Shown here piece by piece: positions 12,030 through 38,296 of a stretch of 64,000 nucleotides of DNA. Made by a program: the position numbers and the translations under genes. The notes beneath the pieces were generated by a model. That model ran no database searches. It was not told the DNA's origin and was given only the letters and a program-made list of their open reading frames with translations. This stretch comes from an uncultured Gammaproteobacteria bacterium (GTDB lineage Bacteria > Patescibacteriota > Microgenomatia > Levybacterales > UBA12049): NCBI GenBank assembly GCA_964503265.1, contig CAZCYO010000004.1:82098-146097 (forward strand). Reading direction: 5' to 3'. Within the stretch, counting starts at the first letter, position 1; each line of letters opens with the position of its first letter.

Positions 12030-12032
12030 ACA

Positions 12033-12678: not shown

Positions 12679-12698
12679 TCAGCAAACTCTAAAAAACT

Positions 12699-13118: not shown

Positions 13119-13119
13119 T

Positions 13120-14937: not shown

Positions 14938-15029
14938 TAATTCTCCTTTTAAACTTGTACTGATGTTTACTTAATGGGAAATAAGCCACCATCATTGACT
15001 CTTTAAGCCTAATTCTTTACGCTAGAGAT

Positions 15030-17093: not shown

Positions 17094-17108
17094 CATGTTT
17101 ATGCTGGT

Positions 17109-20100: not shown

Positions 20101-20381
20101 GTCAAGTCACTCTTTCCTGGTTACAAAGTTCAGGGATATACATGAATCGTGACGCCTCAGATAGTGATCATATTCAAGTGTATACGAACCCTGATTATAC
20201 AGGAACGAAAGTTCTTGATGGTGGTGTGGGTGGTGGAAATACTTCATGGACTATCCCTATTACTAACTCAGGCGTATATAATTCACTAAATTCTGGAACC
20301 ACCTACTATGCTCGCGTTTATAGCTGGAATGCACCATGCAACTGTAGTACGGGCACTGCAATTAGCTTCATAACCCCATAG
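17109..20381 (+). CDS. Secreted multi-domain protein: PQQ-type soluble sugar dehydrogenase-like beta-propeller + PKD domain + four FN3-like tandem repeats
   Basis: Signal peptide (…PAHA/AP). The glucose/sorbosone dehydrogenase family motif is HVGGTIQFGPDGKLYIAVGDNG. The PKD motif is FWNFGDGTSS. There are four ~110-aa repeats (…LSWNQSSGIYMNRDASDSDHIQVY…LDGGVGGG…YYARVYSWNAPCNCS…). Confidence 0.6.
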   Translation: MIYSTHKLMGLKNILVRAFAFVLLTLGIVTAAATPAHAAPPQDFQTQLLVGSGLSNTTGFGIAPDGRIFILQRTGEVKVYKNGALLPQPFTTFSTVITGDRGLIGIAFDPDFLTNHYVYFYLTGSDQYNRVIRLDARNDTAVGDQIIIFQTSTPSELLHVGGTIQFGPDGKLYIAVGDNGYGPNAQDLGNPHGKILRINKDGSTPGDNPFVNIEGVDPQIYAYGLRNPFRFQFDEVSGRMYEGDVGAADWEEINTITPGGNYGWPAAEGNCTDCPYSNPIFTYNHANQSSSITGGPVYHKSLFPSEYQNNLFFGDYARGFIRRLQFDDSGNVLGDYDFDMNAGSVVDLKVGNDGGLYYITYFPSRLYKITYSTGNHSPIPNADVDTMKGISPLTTHFTSSGTYDPDNDPLSYFWNFGDGTSSSEANPTKIYTKNGNYIVTLTVRDSNNLSNQSIPLVIQVGLPPAVIIGSPKEGATYHAGDTIAYTAFASDGAGFDLGDESISTQVLLHHDTHAHPFYGPITGRSHEFTIPINGEPSANTWYEIIITATDANGLTNTKSVTIFPIKSTFHFTTVPAGISLKIDGQPFATPKNIQGVSGYQREIEAYSQDTNGHSYQFSHWSNNGPARQTITTTDQDTNFIAYFTDIGSIDTPASNLQAAVQANNVTLSWNQSSGIYMNLDASDSDHIQVYTNADYTGTNVLDGGVGGGITSWTIPINNSGTYNSLQPGRTYYARVYSWNAPCNCANGTTTSFTTSGTATNGDKPPTNLSITGQTNQIVLNWSPSTGIYTNRDGSDHDHIQVYSNPNFTGTNVLDGGVGGGITSWSIPINTTGSYNSVQPGKTYYAHIYSFNAPCNCSNDTRGSFTVPQATGGTGEKPATNLQVAVQESSVILSWNQSSGIYMNRDASDSDHIQVYTNPDYTGTKVLDGGVGGGNTSWTIPINDSGSYNSVQRGKTYYARVYSWNASCNCSDGTTTSFTVTGTTNDHGASNLQALSSTSQVTLSWLQSSGIYMNRDASDSDHIQVYTNPDYTGTKVLDGGVGGGNTSWTIPITNSGVYNSLNSGTTYYARVYSWNAPCNCSTGTAISFITP
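19064..20378 (+). repeat. Four near-identical ~330-bp tandem coding repeats (FN3-like modules)
   Basis: Long identical DNA stretches recur, e.g. caagtgtatacgaaccctgattatacaggaacgaaagttcttgatggtggtgtgggtggtggaaatacttcatggactat at ~19841 and ~20171. Confidence 0.7.
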
Positions 20382-20503
20382 GAGATACCTTTTCTCTTCA
20401 CATAGCTAACAGATAGCAAAGAGAAGAAGGTATACAACTCTTTATATGCATTATTGCTTCTTCTCTTGACATTTTAATTTGGCTTTCTCTATGCTATAAA
20501 GAG

Positions 20504-23257
20504 ATGAATTTTATTGTTGAAAGATTAAGCCAATTACTAAGATCAGTTACAAATAAAAAATCACTGACGATTCTTTCTGTCGCACTTGTTCTCATCGCAC
20601 TTCCTCTAACAGTCTACATAGGCCAACAACGACAAGATATCAGACAGCGAGCTTCTGGTGGACCACTTGGATATGCACCAGCTGGTACATGTAGCGATCA
20701 GTCATTTTCAGATCTCACTACAGCTCAAGGCACGGTGACAGATCTTGCACTGGCTGCATCTTGTCTGAATCAATCAGTCTATAACTATTGTGTCGTTCGT
20801 GGATTTGGAGATAATACCTTCCGACCAAATGATAACCTCACCCGAGCAGAATTTGTGGCCTTTATCGTGAGATATCATGGAAATATATTTCCGGCAGGAC
20901 ATCCTCAGCGCTGGGATCTTATGACAACAGCTGAAATAGATAGTCTTCCCGTATTTCCAAATAAAATCACGAATGCAACAACAGGCAAGGAACAATTTCG
21001 CCTCTTAGACATCCCTTCTAGCTACCCGCTTGCACGAGAAATCTATACATCACAGAAATATGGATTTATTAAAGGCTATCAGGATGGCACCTTTCAACCA
21101 AGTGTTACTTGGAATTTTGGCTTTCATGGAATAACCCGAAATGATCAAGGCATTGATCCTAATTATAATGACTCATTTAATAATCCCTATAATTTCGCAG
21201 CTGAGTCCGGTCAAATAAAGCGTGGAGAATTTATAAGTCAGCTTTACCAATACGGGAAAGACCCAGTTCGCGCAATAAACGGACAAATCCAATTAGCAGC
21301 ATGTTTCCAGCCGACAGCTGTACCACCGACAGCGACATCAGTTCCTGTCACACCAACCAATCCTCCAACATCAAGCGGTGGAACAGTAACACAAAATGCT
21401 AGTTGCTCTAATACACTATCTGACGTACCCACATCACTCAACCAAGCCATGGGATGCTACCATAACACGACAGCAAGTGGCTACTGCATCGTTCGAGGAA
21501 ACGGCACGACACTTGGTCCAAATGATAACTTATCCAGAGCTGAGTATGTAGCATTTATCGTTAGATACCATAACCAAGTTTTCCCTGTCGGAAATGCCAA
21601 TCACTGGGACCTCATCACTAGAGCTGAATACGATGCACTTGATGGAACAACAGGTAAAAAGAAATTTCCAGACGTAAATCCAGACACATACTCACTCTGG
21701 CAAGAAATTTATACATCACAGAAATATGGATTTGTTGTCGGACAGCTCGATGGTAACTTCTATCCAAACGATCTCTGGACATTTGGTTTCCATGGAATTA
21801 CCAGAAACGATCAGTGGCCAGCTGGAACAGGATATGATTTTAATACGGCTGGGAATTCTATTAGTAGAGGAACATTTATCCAGCAGCTTTTTGATTATGG
21901 TAAAACCAAAGCACAACTCACCGCCTGCTTCCCAGTCTCTACCACCTATATGATTTCAGGTGTCGTTAGTGGAGTAACCGCAGCGACAAATATGGTATGG
22001 AATGTTCCAAATGGTGCATTACCTCCAGTTCCATTCCAAACAGATGCATCAGGAAATTATGCAATTCGAGATCTGAGCGCTGGTACATATTTAGTATCTG
22101 TTGTCTCACCAAGTGGAAAGACAGCAACCCCTCTATCGTATACAGTTAAAGTGGGAGATGGCTGTACTGTTACACCAGCTGGTGAGAGTTCCTGTGGAGC
22201 AGATGGTAATGCAAGTAAGGTAAACTTCTCTGTTACCCAAACACCTCCAGTGGTAACACTCACCGCTCCAGCGAACTTAAGACCTTCTGGATCAATTACC
22301 GAAGGTCAAACTACAGTACAGTGGGATGCCGTTATTGGTGCAGATTCTTATGAATATTCACTTTTGGATCAGACGCTTAACACTAATTTACCAGGTTGTG
22401 TAGTAAAAGGTGGTACAAATAACGATACTGGATGCGTACTCACATTCCCAGCCACCCAACAGAGTTATAATTTTCTGGCGGGACATACGTATCGCATAGG
22501 TGTAAGCGCCATAACGACTTCTTCATCAGGTGTTATCGCACGTGGGCCTGAATCTTCAGTAATAATTACTGCCGCAGCAGCCGTCAGTCAAACACCATCA
22601 ACATCTCCTACGCAAGCTCGTATCAACCTTGAGGTAATCTTTAGACAACATGGTATTGGACTAGCAGCAGATAATGCTAACCCAAATGCAACACCATTAG
22701 TAGTTAGTGGAACCATCATGCCGTTCCCAACACCGGTAGACCTCTTTAGAAATAGAGCTGTGACTGTCTACCTTTCGACAGGAACATCTCTTAATGACGG
22801 AACGCCACAGTATGAATATCAAAAAACTGGAACAGCATTGTACTCACCTGATAACAGTGGGTTTTATAAAGGAGTTATTGATCTAGGAACAGATGTTCCA
22901 GCAGGACAATATATTGTGGCAGTAAGAACAAGTAATTCTCTTTCTCAACAGGCTACAGGATTTGTAACAATTACACCTACAAACACCGTGATTGTTAACT
23001 TTCCGGCCCTTGTTTCAGGAAATGTTTATGACTCAACAATCGATAATACTACTCCCACCAACGATAACCAACTCGACATTCTCGATTACAATGCAATTAT
23101 GGATAACTGGCTGAATCCAGATCTATGCACTACCAGTAATAACCAGACTGTTTGTAACACCATTCGAACACGAGCCGACCTCAATGCAGATGGAGTAGTC
23201 GATGTACTTGACTATAATCTCTTTATCCGAGAACTCAGTGTTCAACGAGGAAGATAA
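20504..23257 (+). CDS. Surface protein: TM anchor + QRQDIRQRAS motif, multiple SLH-like modules, Ig-like region, dockerin-like C-terminus
   Basis: SLH-like segments (…VVRGFGDNTFRPNDNLTRAEFVAFIVRYH…; …GFIKGYQDGTFQP…; …CIVRGNGTTLGPNDNLSRAEYVAFIVRYH…; …GFVVGQLDGNFYP…). The C-terminus, LDILDYNAIM…DLNADGVVDVLDYNLFIRE, is dockerin-like. Confidence 0.55.
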   Translation: MNFIVERLSQLLRSVTNKKSLTILSVALVLIALPLTVYIGQQRQDIRQRASGGPLGYAPAGTCSDQSFSDLTTAQGTVTDLALAASCLNQSVYNYCVVRGFGDNTFRPNDNLTRAEFVAFIVRYHGNIFPAGHPQRWDLMTTAEIDSLPVFPNKITNATTGKEQFRLLDIPSSYPLAREIYTSQKYGFIKGYQDGTFQPSVTWNFGFHGITRNDQGIDPNYNDSFNNPYNFAAESGQIKRGEFISQLYQYGKDPVRAINGQIQLAACFQPTAVPPTATSVPVTPTNPPTSSGGTVTQNASCSNTLSDVPTSLNQAMGCYHNTTASGYCIVRGNGTTLGPNDNLSRAEYVAFIVRYHNQVFPVGNANHWDLITRAEYDALDGTTGKKKFPDVNPDTYSLWQEIYTSQKYGFVVGQLDGNFYPNDLWTFGFHGITRNDQWPAGTGYDFNTAGNSISRGTFIQQLFDYGKTKAQLTACFPVSTTYMISGVVSGVTAATNMVWNVPNGALPPVPFQTDASGNYAIRDLSAGTYLVSVVSPSGKTATPLSYTVKVGDGCTVTPAGESSCGADGNASKVNFSVTQTPPVVTLTAPANLRPSGSITEGQTTVQWDAVIGADSYEYSLLDQTLNTNLPGCVVKGGTNNDTGCVLTFPATQQSYNFLAGHTYRIGVSAITTSSSGVIARGPESSVIITAAAAVSQTPSTSPTQARINLEVIFRQHGIGLAADNANPNATPLVVSGTIMPFPTPVDLFRNRAVTVYLSTGTSLNDGTPQYEYQKTGTALYSPDNSGFYKGVIDLGTDVPAGQYIVAVRTSNSLSQQATGFVTITPTNTVIVNFPALVSGNVYDSTIDNTTPTNDNQLDILDYNAIMDNWLNPDLCTTSNNQTVCNTIRTRADLNADGVVDVLDYNLFIRELSVQRGR

Positions 23258-23327
23258 TTGCTGTGCTTGACAAAAAAATCACTCTGTGTTTAAATCTCAA
23301 TTAAGGTTGTACGACCTATAAATTAAA

Positions 23328-26300
23328 ATGAAGCACACAAAGCGGCCAGATAGTCGCTTTTTTTTCAAGCTGTTCAGTAAATATAGTAAAAACTATAATG
23401 AACATGTGATTTGGGAAAATCCGTTTAAAACGCGGAGAATTGTAACGAGACTTTTCCTCCTCTCTCTCCCCGTCCTCCTCTTCACCCTCTATCACGTTTA
23501 CACCCTAGTAACAAATGCAGCAGTCAACACGTCATACGATGTAGTTGTCGTCGGAGGTGGAACAGGTGGAGTGAGTGCGGCTATTCAAGCCGCTCGCCAA
23601 GGTGTTCGAGTCGGCCTGATCGAGTCGACCGACTGGCTAGGCGGACAAGCAGCTGCAGCAGGAGTTTCGAACATGGATGAGGGCGCTAACGAGCGCTCTT
23701 CTGGTATATATAGCGAGTTTGTGAATAGAGTCGCATCAAAATATGGCGGAGCACAGTATATTCATAAATGCTATTTTGGGGGTAATAATATTTGTCCTGA
23801 ACCACACGTCGTGAGACAAGTACTTGAAGAAATGGTCGCTGGTACTGGAAGAATTGATGTTTATTATCGCCACAGCGTGACATCGGTACTCAAGTCAGGA
23901 AATATCGTGACGGGTGTGACAACTCACTCTTCTGTCGATAACGCAAACAATCAGTTTGGAGCAAAAGTTATAATTGATGCGACTGAATATGGTGATCTCC
24001 TTCCAAAAGCTGGTATTGCCTATAGAATCGGCAGTCAAAATTCAGGAAGTATCAATACTGCTGCCTGTATACAAGATATAACCTATACAGCAGTCGTTAA
24101 ACGATATGATGGAGGTATCCCCTCATACCTTCAGATCACCACAGCACCACCTGGATACAACAGTACAATTGAGTCAAGATTCTCAGAGATGGTGACAAGT
24201 AGTGGTGCACGAGATAATGGAAATGCTCCATATTACTGGAGCTGGATTCACCATAATGCATATCGTGGAATGGCAGATTCTACTCGCCCGTCCACTACAG
24301 ATGCTGGATCTGGCGCAGCTTCTATCACAAAAACAGGTATTAACTTCGCCAATGACTATCCAGCTGAAAAGCCATATAACAATACTGCTGGCAATACAAC
24401 ACTTTCAGTTCGGTATATCGAAGATACAGCATATCGTAAACAAGCTGACTGTGATGCTAAATTAAAAACAATTCAATTCATTTACTACATGCAAAAAAGT
24501 GGACAAAACTGGTCAGTAGCTGATGATGAAGGATTTGATACATCATATAATCAATCAGAAAATTCATGTAGTAATATCCCCACAGCGTTTAAAGAAATCG
24601 AAAAGCGCCTCCCAGTTATGCCATATGTTAGGGAATCACGACGGATGATTGGAGTAACGACATATACATCATCACAGCTTCGTGCTCAAAAACAGTCAAA
24701 TCGACTAGACGGAAGTTCTGTTAAAGCGGTAAATTTCTCAAATAGTATCGCTATTGGTGGATACGATGATGACTTACATAACTGTAATGATGCATCGACT
24801 CTAGATAGTAGTATTGATTTGATCTCAGATAAAGGCATGGGCGGTGGGACCTTTCAAATACCTCTTGAAGCACTCATCCCACAAAGTGTCGATGGCTTTA
24901 TCGCAGCTGAAAAAAATATATCCCAATCCCGACTCGTTAATGGAGCGACTCGTCTCCAGCCAATCACAATGCTAACTGGTCAAGCAGCCGGAGCACTCGG
25001 AGCAATCTCTGCACAATCAAATAGACAGCCACGAACAATTAAACCAATTGAAGTACAGCTCGCACTCGCAAATGCAAAAAGCTACCTCGCACTCGCGCAG
25101 TTTAATGATGTTACTCCAGGAAACGCATATTTTGCCGGCGTACAAATAGCATCTTTATATAACGTTTTTTATGGTGATGGATCAGGAAATTTTAACACTT
25201 CAGGAGTACTTACACGTGGAACTGGTGCTATACTCTTAACTCGACTACTCAATATTCCGACTAATGGCACAGAAGATGATGCGATTACTCAAATCAGACT
25301 TCGTGGATATACAACTGCTTCTTCTAATGCCGCATATAATCCCGGAAACACACTCATCAAAGGCGATCTTGCCGTGTTACTTGCTCGCGCTCTTGGGCAA
25401 AGCCCCGGATCAGTAGATGGGGCACTTTCCTCTCTTTCGTCCCTTGGAATTCCTGTTGAATGTACGAATAGTGGCTGTGCTGGGGATTCAGTCACACGTG
25501 GAATATTTGCAAACGCTGCTGCTTATTCACTTAAATACATTCAAAACGGTATCACGCCAACTACCCCAATCCCTCAAGGAAACCCTGCATCAAATCTCCA
25601 AGTAAACACACAGCCAACCCAAGTATCACTGAGTTGGTCTTCAAGTAGTGGAATATATGCAAATACTAATGCATCAGACGGAGACCATATCCAAATTTAT
25701 TCAAACTCGAACTTTACCGGGACTAGGGTATTAGATGGCGGTGTTGGCGATGGCACACAGAGCTGGACAATCCCAGTCAACAATTCTGGTGAATATAATT
25801 CGGTTCAACCAGGCAAAACGTATTATGCTCGAATCTATACCTTTAATGCACCGTGTAATTGTAGTGATGGAGTAATGGGCAGCTTTACTGTTCCAAACGC
25901 ACCCATTATAGGTGAGGTTGCACAACCAGCATCAGACCTAAGTATTTCTGCACAAGCAGCCCAAATCTCACTGACATGGACTGCAAGTAGTGGGAAATAC
26001 ACGAACACTAACGCAAATGATAATGACCATATCCAAGTCTATTCTAATCCCAACTTTACTGGAACAAAAGTTCTTGATGGTGGTGTCGGTGGTGGCACAC
26101 AGAGCTGGACAATCCCAGTCAACAATTCTGGCGCATATAATTCTGTTCAACCGGGCAAAACGTATTATGCTCGGATTTATAGCTTTAATGCTCCCTGTAA
26201 TTGTAGTGACGGAACCACTGGCTCATTTACTGTTCCAGGAAATTCTCCAACAACTGACAAACCAGCATCAAATCTATCAATCAATGCACAAAGTTCACAA

Positions 26301-27245
26301 GTAAGTATATCCTGGTCTCCAAGTACAGGCAGTTATACCAACAGAGATTTCAGCGATAACGATCATATCCAGATTTATTCTAACTCGAACTTTACGGGAA
26401 CGAAAATACTTGATGGCGGTGTGGGTGGAGGTACAACATCATGGAATATTCCAGTGAATACTTCTGGTTCATATAATTCTGTCAAACCAGGCCTAACATA
26501 TTACGCTCGCATCTACAGTTTCAACGCTCCTTGTAACTGTAGTAACGGAACAAATGGCTCCTTTACCGTACCTGGCACAAATGGTGGAAGTGGTGACTCT
26601 CCTGCCACCAATCTTCAAGCAGGAGTACAGTCCTCTCAAGTTACTTTATCCTGGTCACAAAGCAAAGGAGTATATATGAATCGTGATACTTCAGACAGTG
26701 ACCATATCCAAGTCTACTCGAATTCGAATTTTACCGGGACGAAAGTTCTTGATGGTGGTGTCGGTGGTGGCACACAGAGCTGGACAATCCCAGTCAACAA
26801 TTCTGGCGCATATAATTCTGTTCAACCGGGCAAAACGTATTATGCTCGGATTTATAGCTTTAATGCTCCCTGTAATTGTAGTGACGGAACAACGACGAGC
26901 TTTACAGTAAACGGCACAACGAACGATCATGCTGCAAGTAATCTTCAAGCGGCAGTGCAATCGAACCAAGTCGTTTTAAGCTGGGCACAAAGTAGTGGTA
27001 CGTATATGAATCGTGACACATCAGATAGTGATCATATTCAGGTATATACAAATCCTGACTTCAGTGGCACAAAAGTATTAGATGGTGGTGTGGGTGGTGG
27101 AACGCAAAGCTGGTCAATTCCTATTACTAACTCAGGTACATACAATTCACTTAACTCGGGAACGACGTACTACGCTCGGATTTATAGCTTTAATGCTCCT
27201 TGTAACTGCAGTAGTGGTACCACTACAAGCTTCAGGACCCCCTAA
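23328..27245 (+). CDS. Surface FAD-dependent oxidoreductase-domain protein (PF12831-like) fused to five FN3-like tandem repeats
   Basis: N-terminal TM, then the FAD Rossmann motif DVVVVGGGTGGVSAAIQAARQGVRVGLIESTDWLGGQ. Five ~110-aa repeats follow, homologous to those in the 17109 gene. Confidence 0.6.
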   Translation: MKHTKRPDSRFFFKLFSKYSKNYNEHVIWENPFKTRRIVTRLFLLSLPVLLFTLYHVYTLVTNAAVNTSYDVVVVGGGTGGVSAAIQAARQGVRVGLIESTDWLGGQAAAAGVSNMDEGANERSSGIYSEFVNRVASKYGGAQYIHKCYFGGNNICPEPHVVRQVLEEMVAGTGRIDVYYRHSVTSVLKSGNIVTGVTTHSSVDNANNQFGAKVIIDATEYGDLLPKAGIAYRIGSQNSGSINTAACIQDITYTAVVKRYDGGIPSYLQITTAPPGYNSTIESRFSEMVTSSGARDNGNAPYYWSWIHHNAYRGMADSTRPSTTDAGSGAASITKTGINFANDYPAEKPYNNTAGNTTLSVRYIEDTAYRKQADCDAKLKTIQFIYYMQKSGQNWSVADDEGFDTSYNQSENSCSNIPTAFKEIEKRLPVMPYVRESRRMIGVTTYTSSQLRAQKQSNRLDGSSVKAVNFSNSIAIGGYDDDLHNCNDASTLDSSIDLISDKGMGGGTFQIPLEALIPQSVDGFIAAEKNISQSRLVNGATRLQPITMLTGQAAGALGAISAQSNRQPRTIKPIEVQLALANAKSYLALAQFNDVTPGNAYFAGVQIASLYNVFYGDGSGNFNTSGVLTRGTGAILLTRLLNIPTNGTEDDAITQIRLRGYTTASSNAAYNPGNTLIKGDLAVLLARALGQSPGSVDGALSSLSSLGIPVECTNSGCAGDSVTRGIFANAAAYSLKYIQNGITPTTPIPQGNPASNLQVNTQPTQVSLSWSSSSGIYANTNASDGDHIQIYSNSNFTGTRVLDGGVGDGTQSWTIPVNNSGEYNSVQPGKTYYARIYTFNAPCNCSDGVMGSFTVPNAPIIGEVAQPASDLSISAQAAQISLTWTASSGKYTNTNANDNDHIQVYSNPNFTGTKVLDGGVGGGTQSWTIPVNNSGAYNSVQPGKTYYARIYSFNAPCNCSDGTTGSFTVPGNSPTTDKPASNLSINAQSSQVSISWSPSTGSYTNRDFSDNDHIQIYSNSNFTGTKILDGGVGGGTTSWNIPVNTSGSYNSVKPGLTYYARIYSFNAPCNCSNGTNGSFTVPGTNGGSGDSPATNLQAGVQSSQVTLSWSQSKGVYMNRDTSDSDHIQVYSNSNFTGTKVLDGGVGGGTQSWTIPVNNSGAYNSVQPGKTYYARIYSFNAPCNCSDGTTTSFTVNGTTNDHAASNLQAAVQSNQVVLSWAQSSGTYMNRDTSDSDHIQVYTNPDFSGTKVLDGGVGGGTQSWSIPITNSGTYNSLNSGTTYYARIYSFNAPCNCSSGTTTSFRTP
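25582..27242 (+). repeat. Five tandem ~330-bp coding repeats, with a ~150-bp perfect duplicate at ~26071 and ~26741
   Basis: Identical segments ttcttgatggtggtgtcggtggtggcacacagagctggacaatcccagtcaacaattctggcgcatataattctgttcaaccgggcaaaacgtattatgctcggatttatagctttaatgctccctgtaattgtagtgacggaac occur twice. These account for the spurious antisense ORFs in the track. Confidence 0.7.
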
Positions 27246-27260
27246 TAATAGCGCATACTG

Positions 27261-30200
27261 TATGAAAAAACATATTCACCACAGATTTCAATTTGCTCAT
27301 CTTTTGGTAAATTCGTTGTTATCGATAAAAAGGTTCCCCATAAAAAAAAATCACCACTATACACTCTGGGAAAATCCATTTACTTATAAAAAAATTGTTC
27401 GCACACTTTCTCTGTTTATCCTCCCTATACTTATTTTTACTGGCTACCATACATTCACTACACATAGTCTTGCTGATAGTTCTCGTTCATTTGATGTTGT
27501 TGTTGTAGGTGGTGGGACTGGTGGTGTAAGTGCTGCTATCCAAGCAGCTCGTAATGGTGCAAGCGTTGCTATTGTCGAAGAAACGGACTGGATCGGAGGA
27601 CAAATGACTGCTGGTGGAGTCGGAACACTTGATGAAGGAATGGACTGGTCGACAAACCCAGCAACAGGATACGAAAGAAACTCTGGTATCTATAAAGAAT
27701 TTCTTGATCAAATAACGGCAAAATACGGTGGTATCCAAAACTTACATAAATGTTACTATGGAAATTTTGCAATTTGTTTTGAACCAAAAGTAGGTCAAGA
27801 CGTACTTAGTAGTATGCTTTCAAACGCTGGCGTTCAGGTCTTTACTCGTGAGAAAGTAACAAGTGCATTGAAATCTGGAACTACTGTAACCGGGATTGTT
27901 GCACATAATACACTGACCAATAGTACTGATCAATTTAACGCAAAAGTTGTCATCGATGCAACTGAATATGGTGATGTGATTCCACTCACCGGCGCTGCTT
28001 ATCGAGCCGGAAAATCAACTTCAAGCGCACTTGATCTCAACGCCCCAATTCAAGATATAACCTACAAGTTAGTGATGAAACGATATGACACAGGTATTCC
28101 AGCAAACTTAAAGATAACCCAGGAACCACCTAACTATCAAGCCGTTAAACCGCTCTTTGCGGGGTATCTCTCCCAATCAGCACCAATTAGAGACTGGGGT
28201 GATGGAGTCACAAGTCCCTATACAAATCCGCGGTCTTGGGTACAGTACATTGCATATCGCGGAATAGCTGACTCTAGTCATCCATCATCACTCACAGTAG
28301 GTTCATTTGCTGATGCAGCAGCGCTCACAAAATCAGGAATTAATCTCGCCAATGACTATCCAGCAACAGTAAGATTTTTAGAAGATCCAGCGAACCGTAC
28401 ACAAGTCACCTGCGAAGCAAAGTTACGAACGATTCAAATGCTTTATTACATCCAGCAGGAAATGGCACAAAACTGGTCTGTCGACACAGATGAGGGATTC
28501 GATACATCGTATAACCAAACCCAAAACAACTGTGCAAACATCCCCGCAGCCTTTAAAGAAATCGAAAAACGTATGCCACTGATTCCCTACGTTCGAGAAA
28601 GTCGACGAATAATTGGCGTTTCAACGATAACAAGTGCATCGATGAGAGCACAAAAAACAATCAATAGAAGTGATTCTGCAGCAGTAAATGCAGTTGATGA
28701 TCAGACGTCTATCGCACTTGGTGGATATACAACTGACCTTCACTGTATGAACGGTAATCCTTGTACACAAGACCAATTTGATAGCAGTATTGATAGTATT
28801 TCAGATATGCTTCCTGACACACATTCACTCTTTCAAGTTCCACTTGGCGCACTTATTCCACAAACAATTGATGGATTTATCGCAGCTGAGAAGAACATTT
28901 CCCAAGGGCGCATTCCAGCCGGTGCAACAAGACTGCAACCCATAACGATTCTAACAGGACAGGCCGCCGGAGCACTCGCAGCAATTGCTGCTAAATCAAA
29001 TAGACAACCACGAACAGTCACCGCGCTTGAAGTACAGCAAGTATTACTCGCAGCAAATGATCCGCTGACACTCTATAAATTTAACGATGCACCTCAGGGA
29101 GGCGCATTCTGGCAGTCAATTCATATAGCATCACTCTATGGCATTATGACTGGCAATGGTGGGAATTTTAATACTCCAGACACACTCGACCGAGGAACAG
29201 CTGCTATCATTCTGACTCGGTTATTTAACATCACAACAAACGGCACTACAGAAGATGCAATCACTCAGCTTCGAAATAGAGGTATTTCTAAAGCAACGTC
29301 TAATACAGACTTCGCCGCACAAAATCCACTCTTAAAAGGCCAGCTTGCCTTATTTATCGCGAGAGGACTTGGGAAAAATCCTGCTGACGCAACTGCTGCA
29401 TTTACGTGGACTGTCAGTCAAGGTATTTCTGTTGGATGTCAAAGTAGTGCGTGTGAGCAGGAAAGTGTCAGTCGTGGACAAATGGCTGAAACAGTGACAA
29501 CTTCCCTTCCTTTTATCGGCAGTGCTGTCACTCCAGTGACACTTCCTCCACCGACACAAGTACAACCAACTCCCACAACTATCCCGACAACGACAGCAAA
29601 TGATCCAATTGGTAATATGGACGGCATTAGTACAACAGGACAAGTAACTGGTTGGGGTTGTGATGTTGACGCAACAAATCATACAACAGATATTCACTTT
29701 TATGCGGATGGCGGTGGATTCGGAACCTTTCTGGGAGTGATAACGGCTAAGCAAACAGGCGAAGCCGCACTCGCTCCATTTTGTGCAGAATCGACTTCCC
29801 ATCGATTTACATTTGATCTTCCGACAACGGTTAAAGATGGCAAACCACATAACATATATGCTTACGCAATTGGCGTCGGTGGAGGCGCTGCATATAAACT
29901 ACTTTCAAATGCACCAAGATACTTCCAAAACGGTGGAAATGCTATTCCAAGTAACACAAGTCCTCAGTTAACCGGCTGGCAAGACTATGTTACACCGACT
30001 GGCGATTTGGTTGGGTGGGCCTGTGATAAAGCAAATAACAGTTCACCTGTTAGAATTGATATTTATATCGACGGTGGCGGATTTGGTCAGTTCATCGGCT
30101 CAACAACTGCTGATAAACAAGGTGATGACTCTGCTACGCTAGTCGGACTCTGTGGTGGCGGAAATGGAAACAGACGATACATTTTCCCTCTTCCAGATTC

Positions 30201-30663
30201 AATGAGAAATACCGGCAATCATACCATCTACACCTATGCAATTAGCGCTGGAGATGTAACACACATCCTCATTCCAAATTCAGGGCAAGCTTTTTCACTT
30301 GGGAATAAAGATCCATATGGCTTTCCTGACTATGTTGATACCACCGGACGAGCACTCGGGTGGGTTTGTGACCCAGATGATTTTAACCAAGCAGTCACCG
30401 TTCATTTCTACCTCGACGGCCCAGTTGGGCAAGGAACGTTTATCGGGCAAGCTACTGCGAGTATTCCAGATGAGAAAGCAGTTGGCTACTTCTGTGGTGG
30501 AGTAAATGCACATCGTTTCGCTTGGACACTCCCAGAAAGCGCGCTCACTGGATCACATCAACTTTATGTATATGGCAGTAATATTGGAACTGGAAATACA
30601 CAGCTCCTTGGTGGAGGCCCTATTTCAACAACTGATCGTAAGCAAGCCCCAGCGGGACTATAA
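27261..30663 (+). CDS. Surface FAD-dependent oxidoreductase-domain protein (paralogue 2) with three C-terminal ~120-aa GW(G/A/V)CD repeats
   Basis: The start is taken at MKKHIHH… after the upstream stop; the track ORF 27082 overlaps the previous gene. It has the same TM + DVVVVGGGTGGVSAAIQAAR…WIGGQ domain as 23328. The C-terminal repeats are GWGCDVDATNH…FYADGGGFGTF…, GWACDKANNS…IYIDGGGFGQF…, GWVCDPDDFNQ…FYLDGPVGQGTF…. Confidence 0.6.
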
Positions 30664-30709
30664 ATAGTAAATAAAGCTTGACAAATAAAGACAATTTTCT
30701 CATGATAGA

Positions 30710-33616
30710 GTGAGCGCGATAACCTATATTAGCATGATTGATAGACATACGTTTAAACATCTTCCAGCACTAGTAAAAAAAGCTAAATATTATCCATTCG
30801 TTACACGCCATAAAAAATCTAGTTTATTTATCCTCCTTCTCCTAGTAACTATTCTTCCGATAAGTATTCTCTTCTCACTTCAACGAACAAGAATTTCAAG
30901 TAATGCAAACAGTACGCTCTCGTACGATATCGTCATCGTTGGCGGTGGAACTGGTGGTGTGAGTGCTGCAATTCAAGCTGCCAGACAAGGAACACGTGTC
31001 GCTATCGTTGAACCAACTGATTGGCTAGGTGGACAAATGAGTGCTGCTGGCGTATCCACTATGGATGAAGGATACAGTCGATCTGGTGTAATCATTGAAA
31101 GAAGTTCAGGAATTTATCGTGAATTTACCCAAAAAGTAATTAGTAAATATAATGGACTCGCATATATGCATAAATGTTATTGGGCCGCTGATTCACTTTG
31201 TATTGAACCAAGTGTCGCGAAAAATGTATTAGGAGAAATGGTAACGAGTACCGGTAATATTGATATCTATTACCGAACGAAAGTTACGCAAGTCCAGAAG
31301 ACTGGTAATACAATAACTGGTGTGCTGACTCACTCAACTGCCTCAAACGATGATAATATTCTTGAGGCAAAAATTGTAATCGACGCAACAGAATATGGAG
31401 ATGTTATACCATTAACAGGAGCTGATTATCGTCTTGGCAAATATGTCGCAAGTAGTGGTATTAACGAAAGCGTCTTAAATACATGTATGCAGGACATTAC
31501 CTATCCTGCGACAATTAAACGCTACGATAATGGCATTCCAGCAAATTTACAGATTACACAAGAGCCACCTAACTACCAAGCTGCACGATCACTCTTTATA
31601 CAAGATGTCTCTAAATCTACAGCGCCGGGAGTATCTGATAATCCTCCCTGGTCTTTCACCCAGTTTTTAGGGTACAGAGGCATACCAGATAAATCTCGAC
31701 CGTCTACATCAACACCCACGACAGTCGCAGGACTACAAAGCATTACAAAGACAGGGATAAATGTATCAGGAAATGACATCGCTGAGTCCCTTCGATTTAT
31801 CCAAGATACTACTTTTAGACAAAACCAAAGTTGCGAAGCAAAATTGCGAACGATTCAATATATTTATTACATTCAAAAAGAACTAAACCAACCATGGTCA
31901 GTCGCAGATGATGAGGGGTTTGATACGCTATATAACACTACAGATAACAACTGCACGAATATTCCAGCTGCATTTAAAGAAATTGAGAAGCGCTTACCAC
32001 TTGCACCATACGTTCGAGAAAGCAGGCGCATTATTGGACTAACTACATTAACCTCATATCAGATTCAAGCACAAAAAGACTCTGACCATAAAACAGTCGC
32101 ATCTGTTAAGCCAACTTCATTTGAAAATAGTATCGCCGTTGGTGGATATAATATGGATTTACATAATTGTAATACCTCATCTACCATCGATCCATCAATT
32201 GATAGCACAGGCAGTGTGAATGGTAATCATGAAAAGTTCCAAGTTCCCCTTGAATCACTCATTCCAGCCTCAATTGATGGTTTTTTAGTTGCAGAGAAAA
32301 ATATATCTCAAAGTAGAATAGCAAACGGTGCAACCAGACTTCAGCCAATTACGATGTTGACTGGACAGGCTGCCGGAGCGCTTGCTGCAATTTCCGTTAA
32401 AACTAACCGTCAACCACGTTCTGTTGTCCCAATTGAAGTACAGAGTATTCTTCTTGATGGGAAAGCGCCAATTTCCCTCTATGACACAGTCGATGTAACA
32501 CCAGATAACACTCGCTGGAAAGCAATCCAGATCATCTCTAACTATAATATTATGGTAGGCTATGGTGATGGGAGGTTTGGTCCAGATGACGCAATGACTC
32601 GTGGAACAATGGCGATTGTGTTAACCCGTCTCCTGCAAATCCCAACAGATAATACACCTCTTGATGCATACAATAAATTAAAAGAGAAAGGCATTACCAC
32701 TGCTGCATCATACACAGAATTTGGACCAAATAGTCAGCTCTTAAAAGGTGAACTAGCACTTTTCATAGCCAGAAGCTTAAATCAATTCCCAGCAGATGGA
32801 CCTGAAGCCATAACATACCTACAAACACTCGGGATTACGCTCGGTTGCAATGGAGCAACTCCTTCATCATGCAACACTCAAACAAGTAGTAGAGCTGACA
32901 TGGCAGAAGCAGTATCTGCTACATTAATCTATATCAAAATTAATAAAGGAACTGGAGAAATCACACCACAACCGACACAAGTCGTTAGTACTCCAGTTCC
33001 CACAACAATCAGTATCAGTCCAACTACAGAACCAACAACAGCTATCGCTTGCCCAACTGAGATTCAAGGATTTTATGATGTCCCATCAGACTACCAACCT
33101 GCAACGAAATGTTTTAATGAACGCTATTGTATCGTTCGTGGATTTTCAGCACACATGCTTGGACCTGATGACATCTTAACTCGTGCTCAGTATGTGGCAT
33201 TTATCTTACGATATCACGATCAAATTGTCGGAGACTGGTCGCTTATGGGTCAAAATGAAGTAAACGCATTACCTAAATATCCTAATAAAATAACAAATCT
33301 AGAAACTGGTAAACAACAATTTCTCTTTTCTGATGTCGATCCATCAAATTCACTTGCGCGCGAAATCTATACCTCACAAAAATATGGATTCATCCAAGGA
33401 TACCAAGATGGAACATTTCTCCCTGATGAACAGTGGTATTTTGGTTTCCACGGCGTAACGCGAAATGACGAATGGCCACTTGGATCACCGTATACATTCA
33501 CTCAAGTAGGGGATCGTGTAAAACGAATCGACTTTCTACGAGGTCTTTATACCTATGGTAAGTATCACAATACGCTTCCTGCCTGTAATGATCTTCCAAC
33601 TATCCAATATCCGTAG
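30710..33616 (+). CDS. Surface FAD-dependent oxidoreductase-domain protein (paralogue 3) with C-terminal SLH-like modules
   Basis: TM + DIVIVGGGTGGVSAAIQAARQGTRVAIVEPTDWLGGQ. The C-terminus has CIVRGFSAHMLGPDDILTRAQYVAFILRYH and GFIQGYQDGTFLP (SLH-like), homologous to the C-terminal part of 20504. Confidence 0.6.
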   Translation: MSAITYISMIDRHTFKHLPALVKKAKYYPFVTRHKKSSLFILLLLVTILPISILFSLQRTRISSNANSTLSYDIVIVGGGTGGVSAAIQAARQGTRVAIVEPTDWLGGQMSAAGVSTMDEGYSRSGVIIERSSGIYREFTQKVISKYNGLAYMHKCYWAADSLCIEPSVAKNVLGEMVTSTGNIDIYYRTKVTQVQKTGNTITGVLTHSTASNDDNILEAKIVIDATEYGDVIPLTGADYRLGKYVASSGINESVLNTCMQDITYPATIKRYDNGIPANLQITQEPPNYQAARSLFIQDVSKSTAPGVSDNPPWSFTQFLGYRGIPDKSRPSTSTPTTVAGLQSITKTGINVSGNDIAESLRFIQDTTFRQNQSCEAKLRTIQYIYYIQKELNQPWSVADDEGFDTLYNTTDNNCTNIPAAFKEIEKRLPLAPYVRESRRIIGLTTLTSYQIQAQKDSDHKTVASVKPTSFENSIAVGGYNMDLHNCNTSSTIDPSIDSTGSVNGNHEKFQVPLESLIPASIDGFLVAEKNISQSRIANGATRLQPITMLTGQAAGALAAISVKTNRQPRSVVPIEVQSILLDGKAPISLYDTVDVTPDNTRWKAIQIISNYNIMVGYGDGRFGPDDAMTRGTMAIVLTRLLQIPTDNTPLDAYNKLKEKGITTAASYTEFGPNSQLLKGELALFIARSLNQFPADGPEAITYLQTLGITLGCNGATPSSCNTQTSSRADMAEAVSATLIYIKINKGTGEITPQPTQVVSTPVPTTISISPTTEPTTAIACPTEIQGFYDVPSDYQPATKCFNERYCIVRGFSAHMLGPDDILTRAQYVAFILRYHDQIVGDWSLMGQNEVNALPKYPNKITNLETGKQQFLFSDVDPSNSLAREIYTSQKYGFIQGYQDGTFLPDEQWYFGFHGVTRNDEWPLGSPYTFTQVGDRVKRIDFLRGLYTYGKYHNTLPACNDLPTIQYP

Positions 33617-34691: not shown

Positions 34692-34941
34692 ATTCCAAAG
34701 ACAGTAACTCTTGGTTTAAACCAAGCTAAGCTGAATAATCAGAGTTACCGAGGGGCACAAATTAGTTACCGGTTATTAGTTATACGTTATTAGACAAAAT
34801 GTACGTCCAATATTCATTACTAATCACCAATAACCACATATGGCACCTCGAAAGGGTGTCTTTTTTGTTTTAGCTTTGCTAAAACAACCCCTAACGGAGC
34901 CTGAAGGGCGAAGTGGGGTAAAACTATTAAGGAGTTTACCT
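34692..34941 (+). promoter_or_regulatory. Long 5' leader of rplJ (candidate L10(L12)4 autoregulatory leader)
   Basis: ~250-nt untranslated region between the promoter and the rplJ ATG, with RBS aaggag at 34929-34934. L10 leaders are a known autoregulatory element in bacteria. Its structure was not verified here. Confidence 0.4.
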
Positions 34942-35490
34942 ATGAACAATACATCTGAACCAAAAGTAAGTGCTAATAAAGCGAAAAAAGAAGTAATTAT
35001 CGCAGAAATGACCGATATGGTCACTCGTAGTAAAGGGATGGTCTTTACGAACTACACAGGGCTTACGCATCAACAACTAGAAACGATTAAGCGCGCTGTT
35101 AAGAAGCTAGACGGGAATTACGTCGCTGTTAAGAATACACTTCTTCTACGAGCACTTGGTGACGTTACACTCTCAGATGATGATAAGAAAAAGTTTGAAA
35201 ATCCTACAGCTGCTCTCTTCATGTATAACGATGTAGTGGAACCGTTAAAAGTTCTTTCAAAGATGATGAAAGAAACTGAAAAACCTACGATCAAACTTGG
35301 TATTTTCGAAAGCATTGCAGTATCAGATAAAGATGTTCTGAGAATCTCAACACTTCCATCAAAAGACGTACTTCGAGCACAGCTACTTGGTCAAATGATG
35401 TCACCAATCCAAGGACTACATCGAGCATTATCATGGAACATGCAAAAATTTGTAATGACACTGAGTGCTATTGCGAGCAAAAAAGCATAA
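34942..35490 (+). CDS. rplJ: 50S ribosomal protein L10
   Basis: MNNTSEPKVSANKAKKEVIIAEMTDMVTRSKGMVFTNYTGLTHQQLETIKRAV… with an AAGGAG RBS. The track ORF begins further upstream, at 34840, in the leader. Confidence 0.85.
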   Translation: MNNTSEPKVSANKAKKEVIIAEMTDMVTRSKGMVFTNYTGLTHQQLETIKRAVKKLDGNYVAVKNTLLLRALGDVTLSDDDKKKFENPTAALFMYNDVVEPLKVLSKMMKETEKPTIKLGIFESIAVSDKDVLRISTLPSKDVLRAQLLGQMMSPIQGLHRALSWNMQKFVMTLSAIASKKA

Positions 35491-35607
35491 ATCCGAAGCA
35501 CGAAATTCGAAGTTCGAAACAATTGAGAATAACAAAAATTCAAAATAGTTTCGTGTTTCGAAATTCGATTTTCGAACTTACATTTGAAGGGAGGTGAAAC
35601 GAACGTT

Positions 35608-36000
35608 ATGGCAAAAATAAATAAAGAAGATTTAATGAGTGCAATTGAGGAAATGTCCGTACTCGAACTTTCAGACTTAGTGAAAGCTCTTGAGGAGAAA
35701 TTCGGAGTTTCTGCAGCAGCTACAATGATGGCAGCAGCACCAGCAGCAGCTGGAGCAGCAGACGCTGGAGAAGCAGCAGAAGAACAGACAGTATTCAACG
35801 TCGTTCTCACCTCAGCTGGAGCTCAGAAGATTGCTGTTATTAAAGCAATCCGAGAACTCGTCCCAACACTTGGACTTAAGGAAGCTAAAGACCTCGCTGA
35901 CACAGCTCCAAAAGAGATCATGTCTCAGGTTAACAAAGCAACCGCAGAAGAAGCTAAAGCAAAACTTACCGCTGCTGGTGGTACAGTCGAGTTAAAGTAA
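35608..36000 (+). CDS. rplL: 50S ribosomal protein L7/L12
   Basis: [38 protein letters not shown]…Ala/Glu hinge…KEAKDLAD…[17 protein letters not shown] ggaggtg. Confidence 0.9.
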
Positions 36001-36141: not shown

Positions 36142-38046
36142 ATGGCATTTGAAGATAGTGGAAGTGGAGCTTCTGTCCCAAGAACTGATCTCTTAACGGT
36201 TAAATCCGAAGAAGATAGACTTGAAAGTGATGCAGCTGACGTACTGAATGCATTACGAGCACAAGTAACTTCTCCCCTTTTTGACGAACGACAAGGAAAG
36301 ATAATAAAAAGAACGATGGATTCTCTGTATCCACTAGTAAATATCACTGCTCAATTAGGTAACGAACGACATACACGTCAGTTGTCAGAAGATGATATTG
36401 TCCGAAATAGCGAAGCTGCATTAGGAATGGACTTCCTTATTGAAGATAAGCTCGCGTTATTAGATGACCAAATTAAAAAGGCTGGTATTATTGGAGGGAA
36501 AGCAGCCACCTACGTTCCAGTTGTAAGACGGCTATCTTCATTACGTGTAGGCATACCAATTAATGGCGTAACACTTAATGATTTAGTGGTTAACCCAGAT
36601 GCAGTTGAGCCTGAGAACTTATTAGAAGTAATGATAGAACTTGGTCAAAGTGTCGGAAGAAAGCAGACTGAAGCAATGGCTCAAAAACATGCTGCTACCT
36701 ATACAGACTACCTTCAATTTCCCGCCAATTCGAAAATAGCTGCATCACTTTCTCTTGCAGGGTTTCTCGTGGCTGGAATATTAACTGATGACACCATTCG
36801 ACGCCTCCCTATTCCTCGTCAATATGCAGAAGAGGCGGGTAAAAAATTAAAGCAATTATATACAGGGACAAAAGCCGTTCAAGAAAGAGGACTACAAATG
36901 ATGCTTACAGGAGATTCGGATTCTGCGAAAAGAATGAGAGCCACATTGCTTACGAATATAGATACCTTAACTGGTTATGAGTTTATGCAGGCTCTTGGTA
37001 TAAGAAGGCATTCTGATATGCAGGGAATTATTCGCCAACTTGACGATTTACCCAAAGACGATTTTACAACGGCTTTAGAAGCAAGAATATTTTCTGAAGT
37101 AGAAGCACTCAATCCTACTGTGGTTTTTTCGACAGAAGATGCGCTTGATTTAGTAGGAGAAGGATCAGGTCCTAAATCCACTATTTCTCTTGAGCAAGCA
37201 GCAAATGCAGCTTCTAAAAGAATAAAAAATAAAGTTTCAATAGACCCTGCTGCACTTACATGGGGAAACGCTCCTCAGCCTGAAGAGATTATTGTTGAAT
37301 CGGGTAGTAACAGAACAAATGGGAGAATTCTGTCTGTTGGCTACGTTTATGCTGATACTGATATTGAAGGTGAACAAGAAGTATTATACTGCGACTACTT
37401 GCTTGATAAAAAAACTTTTGACTGGTCACTGCTCACCTCTCCTACATCTGAGAAGGGTGCACCGATTGCAGCTCATTTTTCCTCGCTGACTGCTCAAGTA
37501 CTTGATCTAGCAGCGCAACCGAAAGCGACAAGACAAACAGAAGTAGCTCCTGAACCAGCGAAAAAATATTTCGCAGAGGTTACTCCCGATCGAGCAGAAA
37601 AAATTAGAGAGCAAAAAATAAGACCCAGAGTCGAAGCCACAAATGCACAGCTTACAAAAGATACTGAGTTTAAACCTTCTGGTCTGCGTTATGAAGTAGC
37701 TCTACCAGATTTATCTGATGACACTGCGAGAAGAAATTTTGAAGACACTATTTTAGCAAATGTGAAACCACAAGATATACCTGCTGTACTTGAATATTTT
37801 GATAAAATCAATAAAGGTGAAATAAACCCTTCAATTGCTGCACTAACAAGTGTTAAAACGAATAATGGCGAACAAGTATTTAAAGACAAGCTCTATACTC
37901 CAAATGGAAGACTTCGTATTTTACATACTATAGCAACAGGAGAAAACGCTAAGCCAGGAGTTATTCGCCTCGTTCCAGGAATAGTGCGATATAGAAATGA
38001 TGTATCTTATGGAAAACGGGGAAGAAAACAGTTAAGAGAGATGTAA
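36142..38046 (+). CDS. Hypothetical 634-aa soluble acidic protein (orphan, occupies the position where rpoB normally follows rplL)
   Basis: Long ORF with no TM segments and no recognisable catalytic motif. It is slightly higher in GC than its surroundings. Confidence 0.45.
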   Translation: MAFEDSGSGASVPRTDLLTVKSEEDRLESDAADVLNALRAQVTSPLFDERQGKIIKRTMDSLYPLVNITAQLGNERHTRQLSEDDIVRNSEAALGMDFLIEDKLALLDDQIKKAGIIGGKAATYVPVVRRLSSLRVGIPINGVTLNDLVVNPDAVEPENLLEVMIELGQSVGRKQTEAMAQKHAATYTDYLQFPANSKIAASLSLAGFLVAGILTDDTIRRLPIPRQYAEEAGKKLKQLYTGTKAVQERGLQMMLTGDSDSAKRMRATLLTNIDTLTGYEFMQALGIRRHSDMQGIIRQLDDLPKDDFTTALEARIFSEVEALNPTVVFSTEDALDLVGEGSGPKSTISLEQAANAASKRIKNKVSIDPAALTWGNAPQPEEIIVESGSNRTNGRILSVGYVYADTDIEGEQEVLYCDYLLDKKTFDWSLLTSPTSEKGAPIAAHFSSLTAQVLDLAAQPKATRQTEVAPEPAKKYFAEVTPDRAEKIREQKIRPRVEATNAQLTKDTEFKPSGLRYEVALPDLSDDTARRNFEDTILANVKPQDIPAVLEYFDKINKGEINPSIAALTSVKTNNGEQVFKDKLYTPNGRLRILHTIATGENAKPGVIRLVPGIVRYRNDVSYGKRGRKQLREM

Positions 38047-38047: not shown

Positions 38048-38296
38048 TTACTCGCTTTTCTGTTGGATACCTAGAAGCCAGAGGACGGCTTCTTTTTTGT
38101 AGCGGCGGTCGCCACGACTGTTGATGCGAATGGCTGGAAGCTTACCCCGTTTCCCCCATCTCTTAATAGTTAATGGTGACACTCGGAGCACTTCTGCAAC
38201 CTCGCGAACGGTTAATAGATCTGGTAAGTCTTGTATTGATATCTTTTGATCAGCCATAGCCTTGGGACTAGATATTAGTTGTCTATAAGGTAACAA
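38048..38296 (-). CDS. Helix-turn-helix DNA-binding protein, excisionase/MerR-like (HTH_17) family
   Basis: LLTVREVAEVLRVSPLTIKRWGKRGKLPAIRINSRGDRRYKKEAV matches the excisionase-family HTH pattern. It is a paralogue of the 53827 gene. Confidence 0.55.
   Translation of the reverse strand: MLPYRQLISSPKAMADQKISIQDLPDLLTVREVAEVLRVSPLTIKRWGKRGKLPAIRINSRGDRRYKKEAVLWLLGIQQKSE

Follow-up and report, generated by a model that had tools for sequence, protein, structure and literature searches.

Three tandem genes for putative surface-displayed flavoenzymes between rplA and rplJ of a member of the Patescibacteria

We analyzed a stretch of 64,000 nt (the window, to which all coordinates below refer) from contig CAZCYO010000004.1 of assembly GCA_964503265.1, assigned to the Patescibacteriota. 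Between the ribosomal protein genes rplA and rplJ lie three consecutive genes, here termed p1, p2 and p3, each encoding a FAD_oxidored (PF12831) domain, or head, of the type that binds flavin adenine dinucleotide (FAD), followed by three surface-layer homology (SLH) modules and a C-terminal tail that differs from one protein to the next. In the reading we favor, to which we assign a probability of about 50%, the products are Sec-exported, SLH-docked flavoenzymes, encoded in a secretome island of variable content, whose substrates would be extracellular and probably derived from polymers or carbohydrates. The three tandem copies with their new tails are a lineage-specific variant of a common, uncharacterized family.

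All three genes lie on the plus strand. p1 (23328–27245) encodes 1305 aa, p2 (27262–30663) 1133 aa, and p3 (30710–33616) 968 aa when counted from a GTG codon at 30710, or 960 aa from the ATG at 30734 called by other gene callers. Such callers place the start of p2 at 27082 or 27193; position 27262 is backed by homology of the N-terminal region to that of p1 and to that of a 987-aa protein encoded at a sister locus, L085. A preliminary description of this DNA, made from the sequence alone, had set the p2 start at 27261, which is one base out of frame, and had read the genes as three tandem paralogues with a FAD domain. The paralogy is borne out by the open reading frames (ORFs), by matches to the full PF12831 model and by BLASTP, in which the products show 49–52% pairwise identity over 748–785 aa (E = 0). 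The paralogues had also been thought to diverge completely after a FAD domain of ∼550 aa. Instead, homology extends to about residue 750, because an SLH triplet directly follows the FAD domain in all three proteins, and divergence begins only beyond that triplet. In a neighbor-joining tree computed with the 120 best database hits, p1, p2 and p3 form a single clade, which points to an old, lineage-specific tandem triplication.

The same genes recur on independent contigs. p2, p3 and the genes for L10 and L12 lie together on one Logan contig, and nusG, the L11 and L1 genes and the first surface-protein genes lie together on another; for L1, p3 and the representative of the 90%-identity cluster of p2, the longest contig recorded is in each case a 236.9-kb NCBI contig. 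The locus is not an assembly artefact. The exact 960-aa product of p3 (from the ATG at 30734) is on record, on an independent contig; exact look-up retrieved neither the p1 product nor the p3 product counted from the GTG.

The heads of p1 (23538–25064, residues 71–579), p2 (27493–29046, residues 78–595) and p3 (30926–32452, residues 73–581) match PF12831 with 263.1 bits (E = 7.5e-78), 266.1 bits (E = 9.3e-79) and 290.1 bits (E = 4.7e-86), respectively. The gathering cut-off is 27 bits, and the matches span model positions 1 to 415/416. Matches to all other flavoprotein families are confined to the first ∼40 residues of the heads, which correspond to the Rossmann motif. All three proteins carry DxVVVGGGTGGVSAAIQAAR...V(A/G)(I/L)(V/I)E, i.e. 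strand β1, GxGxxG, a helix and the acidic residue that ends β2. An AlphaFold 2 (AF2) model of the p3 head has a predicted local distance difference test (pLDDT) score of 92.7, its secondary structure fits this motif, and its closest solved folds are flavoenzymes. The FAD-binding fold posited in the preliminary description is thus upheld, and hidden Markov model searches return PF12831 rather than a non-redox fold.

Across 123 aligned sequences that share only ∼40–50% identity, 90 columns are at least 95% conserved. These include G78, G80, G83, E101, D104 and G107–Q109 (p3 numbering), and the dinucleotide site as a whole is near-invariant (GxGxxG, the Glu closing β2, the GGQ loop and the DATEYGD strand). 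Two motifs that had been picked out by eye in the three paralogues, PYVRESRR and GATRLQPITMLTGQAAG, are real and correspond to near-invariant columns family-wide. Nearly all 90 columns are kept in p1–p3 (85 in p1, along with all six conserved cysteines), and for this reason all three heads look functional and are probably active.

The fold is less informative with regard to chemistry. Searches of PDB sequences with p3, with a family profile and with a peptide from the C-terminal motifs found only Rossmann-motif and SLH matches, and Foldseek on the head model returned generic flavoproteins only (TM-score < 0.3). The substrate or cap half of the head has no solved relative, and hence the reaction class is not revealed by the fold. 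Many of the conserved polar residues are Arg, Tyr, Trp, Asp, Asn or His, which leaves the impression that a sugar-like ligand, polar or anionic, would fit. Given a cap domain of this kind, which makes up half of the head, one could suppose that the flavin is structural and that these proteins are lyases, isomerases or hydratases, or that they simply bind a ligand. The difficulty of loading a cofactor after Sec export and the lack of a redox partner encoded nearby fit this idea as well. However, the dinucleotide motifs hardly vary among the 123 aligned sequences, taken from >2,000 secreted relatives, which argues for a bound cofactor, and the structural neighbors are all redox flavoenzymes. We consider a non-redox or non-catalytic role decidedly unlikely.

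More specific assignments were evaluated and rejected. The heads are not members of PF00890 (FAD_binding_2, the class of fumarate and urocanate reductases and 3-ketosteroid dehydrogenase), as the match covers the first ∼40 of 414 model positions (32–33 bits) and no homology is seen beyond the Rossmann motif. The segment GATRLQP was considered as a counterpart of GANRLG, which we take to be the substrate-Arg motif of the FrdA class, but hhalign of the family against E. coli FrdA ends after the N-terminal 150 residues, with 27% probability, and leaves that equation unsupported. UrdA (6t85) and flavocytochrome c3 (1qo8), both periplasmic, align with the head over only ∼260 residues at 17–18% identity; the cap domain of p1–p3 is unrelated, and the proteins have neither the heme nor the flavin mononucleotide (FMN) domain of that family, to which they do not belong. 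These comparisons bear on the idea that p1–p3 are extracellular terminal reductases of an anaerobic respiratory or extracellular electron transfer chain, in the manner of urocanate reductase, flavocytochrome c3 or the Listeria-type fumarate reductase. With fumarate-reductase family membership failing, and with neither an FMN-binding domain or heme motif nor an ApbE or quinone-linked partner encoded in the genes or nearby, this is the least likely of the alternatives, and a highly improbable one. It also sits poorly with the general lack of respiratory chains in Patescibacteria and with the abundance of relatives in aerobic Acidobacteriota. The folds of GMC-type (AA3) and VAO-type (AA7) flavo-oxidases were likewise not recognized in the heads. 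Finally, 'xanthan lyase', a label sometimes given to PF12831 proteins, was dropped because a review classes the Paenibacillus alginolyticus enzyme as PL8 (PMC10881899).

To place the heads relative to the membrane, we considered hydropathy, charge, the signal peptides of relatives and cysteine conservation. The N-terminal helix noted earlier is present in each paralogue as one hydrophobic segment near residue 40 (residues 38–61 in p1, 23439–23510), interpretable as a signal anchor or a long signal peptide. It follows a basic stretch, with 10 Lys/Arg residues in p1 and 8 in p3. Hydropathy scans detected no second membrane-like segment in p1–p3, and so the head should share one side of the membrane with the SLH and Ig-like modules. 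In most aligned relatives, a short signal peptide of the Sec type ends a few residues ahead of the Rossmann strand; the long basic N-regions set p1–p3 apart from them. Tat export was rejected, as the twin-arginine motif is not conserved. Only p1 has RR at the relevant position (TRRIV, compared to YKKIV in p2 and RHKKS in p3), and the pattern occurs in just 2 of 46 relatives. As a rule, then, these proteins are not exported by Tat as pre-folded holoenzymes.

Six cysteines of the head are 98–100% conserved across the 123 sequences. Just three sequences deviate, each by exactly one pair: p2 lacks Cys259 and Cys487 (p3 numbering), and the database proteins P0073 and P0037 lack Cys156 and Cys164. 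Because these cysteines are lost only in pairs, the head is predicted to contain three disulfides, and the pattern indicates pairing of 156 with 164, 259 with 487 and, by elimination, 375 with 415. Some relatives carry dockerin or PG_binding_1 (PF01471) domains in place of, or besides, SLH. The single N-terminal segment, the fused SLH and Ig-like modules, the Sec signals of relatives and the paired loss of cysteines strongly support a head outside the membrane, as the preliminary description had supposed, and none of the indicators places it in the cytoplasm.

The SLH triplets lie at 25101–25553 in p1, 29080–29529 in p2 and 32489–32947 in p3. Pfam detects SLH in p3 (E = 4.3e-19); the p1 triplet was located by alignment to that of p3, and the p2 triplet, which scores 18.7 bits, slightly under the Pfam cut-off, by alignment to both. 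SLH-like modules had been noted earlier in p3; these are indeed present, but the triplet is common to all three proteins. A profile of the family triplet matches the SLH region of Sap (E = 3.7e-19), and its three consecutive modules are homologous to those of Bacillus anthracis Sap and Paenibacillus alvei SpaA, which form a three-prong fold. There are differences. In Sap and SpaA the triplet is N-terminal, whereas in p1–p3 it is internal, after the enzyme head; it also has extra Cys pairs, and the middle motif lacks the Arg residue. By alignment, the TRAE-type Arg, through which SLH modules bind pyruvylated secondary wall polymer, is present in modules 1 and 3 (TRG, and TRG or SRA, respectively) and replaced by Lys in module 2.

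Such anchoring allows for the possibility that the flavin heads are self-directed, modifying polymers of the cell's own envelope (secondary wall polymer, peptidoglycan or S-layer glycan) on which the SLH modules place them. Wall-binding modules are fused to the head family-wide, as SLH in most relatives and PG_binding_1 in some; the modules to which the triplet is homologous bind pyruvylated wall polymer; the conserved Arg, Tyr, Asp and Asn residues would suit a ligand of the sugar-acid type; and penicillin-binding proteins and β-lactamase-fold genes occur near a few relatives. On the other hand, SLH is a generic anchor of many secreted hydrolases and is silent on substrate. Furthermore, the partners encoded in the island, both here and in the sister genome, are enzymes of the nutrient type, including S8 proteases and members of glycoside hydrolase (GH) families GH10 and GH16/GH5, and three diverged copies with binding-type tails shared with a xylanase suit external substrates better. 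Hence a role in the cell's own wall strikes us as unlikely.

Beyond the SLH triplet, each paralogue has its own tail. p1 ends in five FN3-like repeats of ∼112 aa each (25584–27242), which had been recognized as such in the preliminary description; their match to Pfam fn3 is weak (E = 4e-5) and below the cut-off. At the DNA level there are nine copies of ∼336 nt, five in p1 and four in the gene at 17109–20381 (plus strand), and the encoded repeats are 63–73% identical. The latter gene encodes an exported GSDH-type β-propeller (PF07995, 204 bits, E = 4.7e-60) with a PKD domain (PKD_4, E = 3.9e-21), which agrees with its earlier description as a sugar-dehydrogenase-like propeller of the pyrroloquinoline quinone (PQQ) type on the same FN3 scaffold; the NCBIfam subfamily model TIGR03606 gives only 94 bits, compared to a cut-off of 434. 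p3 ends in an additional SLH-like module (33086–33562; Pfam SLH, E = 1.3e-8), which shares 43–49% identity with two modules of the 917-aa protein encoded at 20504.

The tail of p2 (29584–30660) consists of three repeats of ∼115 aa, as had been seen earlier, each with the motif GW[GAV]CD and a second conserved Cys, which together make one conserved Cys pair. Searches of Pfam and of PDB sequences gave no match for this repeat (hereafter, GW.CD). Its AF2 model (pLDDT 83) is an all-β sandwich that resembles Ig and FN3 domains. We searched 1.84 billion representative sequences with a profile of the repeat and obtained 5,878 proteins with 1–15 copies each at E ≤ 1e-3, of which 3,194 reach E ≤ 1e-10; the profile included some flanking columns of four full-length seed proteins, and a minority of matches fall there. 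In a sample of 71 proteins, co-occurring domains include GH10, GH26, CBM60, CBM96, CHAP, NlpC/P60, GDSL and CAP. GW.CD is a widespread accessory module of secreted enzymes that has no Pfam family, and it is not specific to flavoproteins. The consensus from the window (29584–30660) and proteins P0246–P0396 reads P.G..D...GWA.DPD....V.VHFY.DG.AG...G...AN..R.D.....G...HGF....P...DG.H..YAYAI.

p1–p3 are the last of seven co-oriented genes (13966–33616) between rplA (13120–13917, plus strand; PF00687) and rplJ (34840–35490, plus strand; PF00466), and all seven products have N-terminal export signals. The first two genes (13966–17093, plus strand), assigned from ORFs and Pfam, encode a Cys-rich 323-aa protein and a 687-aa β-helix protein (NosD/pectate-lyase-like) with a dockerin-like C-terminus. 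These are followed by the GSDH-type gene and by the gene for the 917-aa surface protein (20504–23257, plus strand), in which Pfam and BLASTP identify two SLH-like modules along with a CarboxypepD_reg-like domain, the C-terminus again being dockerin-like. A stem-loop with a T-run lies at 34842–34860, within the start of the rplJ ORF, and hence the true start of rplJ is probably downstream of 34840. A scan of the island for promoters and terminators performed no better than on shuffled sequences. The 323-aa protein (13966–14937) has two Cys-rich modules of ∼70 aa and is the first island gene also on independent contigs; its match to PF12924, the copper-binding domain of amyloid precursor protein, is marginal (31 bits, cut-off 26.4), with no single stretch significant. 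Several island proteins share the motif Q(R/K)QD(I/N)RQ(R/H)A(S/A) after the N-terminal hydrophobic segment (13966–14100, 15030–15160, 20504–20660), as do the products of L085 genes at 3959, 8445 and 12967. It may be a lineage-specific signal-processing or sorting site. p1–p3 lack it; p1, p2 and the 987-aa sister protein have in common an ENPF sequence in the basic N-region.

The L1 protein places the organism near Levyibacteriota and the 'PAT' soil bins, with 59–61% identity to named relatives. Comparison of related loci (L085, L086/L087, L088 and L089) reveals that the rplA–rplJ gap (13918–34839; flanks 11977–13917 and 34840–36000) is a site of variable cargo. The flanks are conserved, with PAP2, NTP_transferase, SecE, NusG, L11 and L1 on one side and L10 and L12 on the other. 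In L085, the closest relative (L1 79% identical), the gap contains genes for a GH16+GH5 protein, a GH10 xylanase, an SLH-like protein and two PF12831 proteins. A more distant relative has two S8 proteases in the same gap, another has dockerin proteins and GH114, and a Levyibacteriota bin has three small genes with no assigned function. The gap may be a high-expression hotspot for secreted proteins.

Module sharing ties the flavin heads to these hydrolases. In L085, GW.CD repeats occur on both the GH10 xylanase and one of the PF12831 proteins, and the GH16+GH5 protein has a dockerin-like end like those of the β-helix and 917-aa proteins here. Consequently, the tails are exchangeable modules for display or binding, and the flavin head takes its place as a catalytic head alongside those of hydrolases. 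Modular, cellulosome-like secretomes likewise place the same tails on unrelated heads, as is seen here for the FN3-like repeats (GSDH-type protein and p1), GW.CD (p2 and GH10) and the dockerin-like ends. Unlike in those systems, no cohesin or scaffoldin was identified here, and anchoring is apparently via SLH and membrane segments. A looser parallel may be drawn with the auxiliary activity (AA) families of CAZy. Secreted redox enzymes that accompany glycoside hydrolases include the AA3 (GMC) and AA7 (VAO) flavo-oxidases and the AA12 PQQ-dependent pyranose dehydrogenase. The pairing of flavoprotein heads with a GSDH-type propeller, in an island that in the sister genome contains GH10 and GH16+GH5 proteins with shared binding-type modules, would be reminiscent of that arrangement.

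How common are such proteins? A word-indexed search found 2,235 proteins at E ≤ 1e-10. The top 120, which are 41–50% identical to p1–p3, are mostly 700–800 aa long and combine PF12831 with SLH; those that are named are annotated only as 'FAD-dependent oxidoreductase'. p1–p3 share with this secreted subfamily the full-length model match, the 90 near-invariant columns, the six cysteines and the order of head and SLH. They differ from it in being arranged as three tandem copies between rplA and rplJ, and in having added tails that bring them to 970–1300 aa, compared to ∼700–800 aa. With two peptide patterns we recovered at least 354 relatives in species-representative genomes, including Myxococcota, Acidobacteriota, many Patescibacteria lineages, Verrucomicrobiota, Lentisphaerota, Planctomycetota, Synergistota and Bacteroidota. 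The arrangement had been called one not commonly described. This stands insofar as we found no characterized member in the literature searched, but PF12831+SLH proteins are abundant and phylogenetically broad in databases.

We examined the neighborhoods of the best 80 of the 354 relatives, each of which is at most 46% identical. TonB-dependent barrels lie near the homologue in nine acidobacterial loci, and scattered neighbors include GH97, GH29, GH10, β-helix proteins and SSF, TRAP and GntP transporters. Across phyla, then, the neighborhoods have a weak carbohydrate flavor. In six Synergistaceae loci (Synergistaceae/Fretibacterium; among L045–L048, L057, L059, L072 and others), ribD and a gene with a lumazine-binding domain (riboflavin-synthase type) adjoin the PF12831 homologue. 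This is a case of clade-specific synteny and the sole flavin-related neighborhood among the loci examined.

Our favored reading can be stated as a series of steps. The basic N-region and the single hydrophobic segment would direct insertion by Sec, after which the segment would either stay as an anchor or be cleaved ∼10 residues ahead of the Rossmann strand, at a small-x-small site. The head, of ∼520 aa, would fold outside the membrane, stabilized by three disulfides (two in p2), and would bind FAD non-covalently via the classical GxGxxG/Glu dinucleotide site. The SLH triplet would dock the enzyme on a wall polymer, probably a pyruvylated one, and the tails (FN3-like, Ig-like GW.CD or extra SLH-like) would serve as spacers or binding modules, swapped among the many secreted enzymes of this lineage. 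Working alongside the other secreted enzymes of the L1/L10 island, the heads would then oxidize or dehydrogenate (reduction seems less likely) an extracellular substrate, probably derived from polymers or carbohydrates and anionic or polar in nature. Here the link to carbohydrate comes from gene neighborhood, namely the GH16+GH5 and GH10 genes of the sister genome, and we infer the substrate class on that basis. Three diverged copies would suggest three specificities or positions. That the substrates are host-derived, as had been proposed, is pure speculation.

A number of observations weigh against this reading. A Sec-exported FAD enzyme requires a supply of cofactor outside the cell, Patescibacteria usually lack flavin biosynthesis, and no flavin transporter, ApbE or FAD-synthesis gene was found among the window ORFs scanned. 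No electron-transfer partner is encoded beside p1–p3. The alignment to FrdA, as mentioned above, goes no further than the N-terminal region. Neither PDB sequence searches nor the literature on PF12831/FAD_oxidored, including that on its combination with SLH or on polysaccharide utilization, provided a characterized close relative. Over the 80 loci, clustering and three Pfam scans revealed no neighbor that is conserved across phyla, only clade-specific synteny, and CAZymes are only occasional neighbors of the relatives.

With no partner for electron disposal, O2 would be the simplest acceptor, and one can envision surface oxidases whose key product is H2O2, directed against neighbors or a host cell, or whose benefit is the removal of O2, much like secreted amino-acid or sugar oxidases. 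The proteins are surface-displayed, and Patescibacteria are often episymbionts, which makes contact chemistry plausible. Yet free-living Acidobacteriota, Myxococcota and Verrucomicrobiota carry the family just as commonly, we noticed neither a catalase nor a peroxidase gene in the window, and no direct evidence speaks for such a function. We deem it very unlikely. Returning to the favored reading of docked enzymes acting on external substrates, a bolder version of it would make the family a new and widespread class of extracellular redox 'auxiliary' enzymes, loaded with FAD after Sec export, tethered by SLH and deployed beside glycoside hydrolases on polymer-derived substrates, with three specialized copies in a ribosomal-operon expression hotspot of a presumably flavin-auxotrophic member of the Patescibacteria. 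This version is tentative and, in our view, rather doubtful. If true, it would imply redox chemistry with a scavenged cofactor on the surface of an ultra-small symbiont.

Several other features of the window deserve mention. Between 38400 and 40000 lies a region of ∼1.6 kb with a GC content of 0.49–0.57, compared to ∼0.40 elsewhere, which contains only overlapping, implausible ORFs on both strands. It has no Pfam match, Rfam match or tandem repeats, and RNA folding predicted for either strand has a z-score of about –4 (20 shuffles). Next to it are an excisionase-like ORF (HTH_17/MerR) and an ORF of 634 aa that matches no family (ORFs at 36142–38046, plus strand, and 38048–38296, minus strand), and the region may be the remnant of an inserted element or a large RNA of no recognized family. 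In L088, the one relative locus showing a counterpart of this region, a gene for ribose-phosphate pyrophosphokinase (PRPP synthase) lies between rplL and a LytR_C gene. On the minus strand at 4256–7104, ∼16 kb upstream of p1–p3, are genes for a DUF1775 (YcnI-like) protein and for a transmembrane protein that combines Ferric_reduct with a YtkA-like domain, together with an unassigned ORF. This cluster is a membrane module of the copper- or electron-transfer type with no established link to p1–p3; a DUF1775 gene is also found at the corresponding place in L086. An ORF of 2809 aa (45156–53585, minus strand) has no Pfam match. The run of ORFs at 54171–61323 is mostly devoid of family matches, with two weak matches to WxL-interacting/peptidoglycan-binding-like domains.

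Should the heads prove ordinary or inactive, what is left is a common surface protein with poor annotation that has expanded in one lineage. If they are active, they would represent a family of Sec-exported, wall-anchored oxidoreductases that is large, spans many phyla and is of uncharted chemistry, with at least 354 relatives and more than 2,000 proteins in databases. New secreted oxidases or dehydrogenases might be drawn from this family, and for these the cysteine pairing and the high-confidence model can guide construct design. Patescibacteria are regarded as metabolically minimal fermenters. With active heads, one would have to ask how such a cell acquires FAD and loads it on the outside, and three surface redox enzymes together with a PQQ-type dehydrogenase-like protein would widen the extracellular repertoire of the group.

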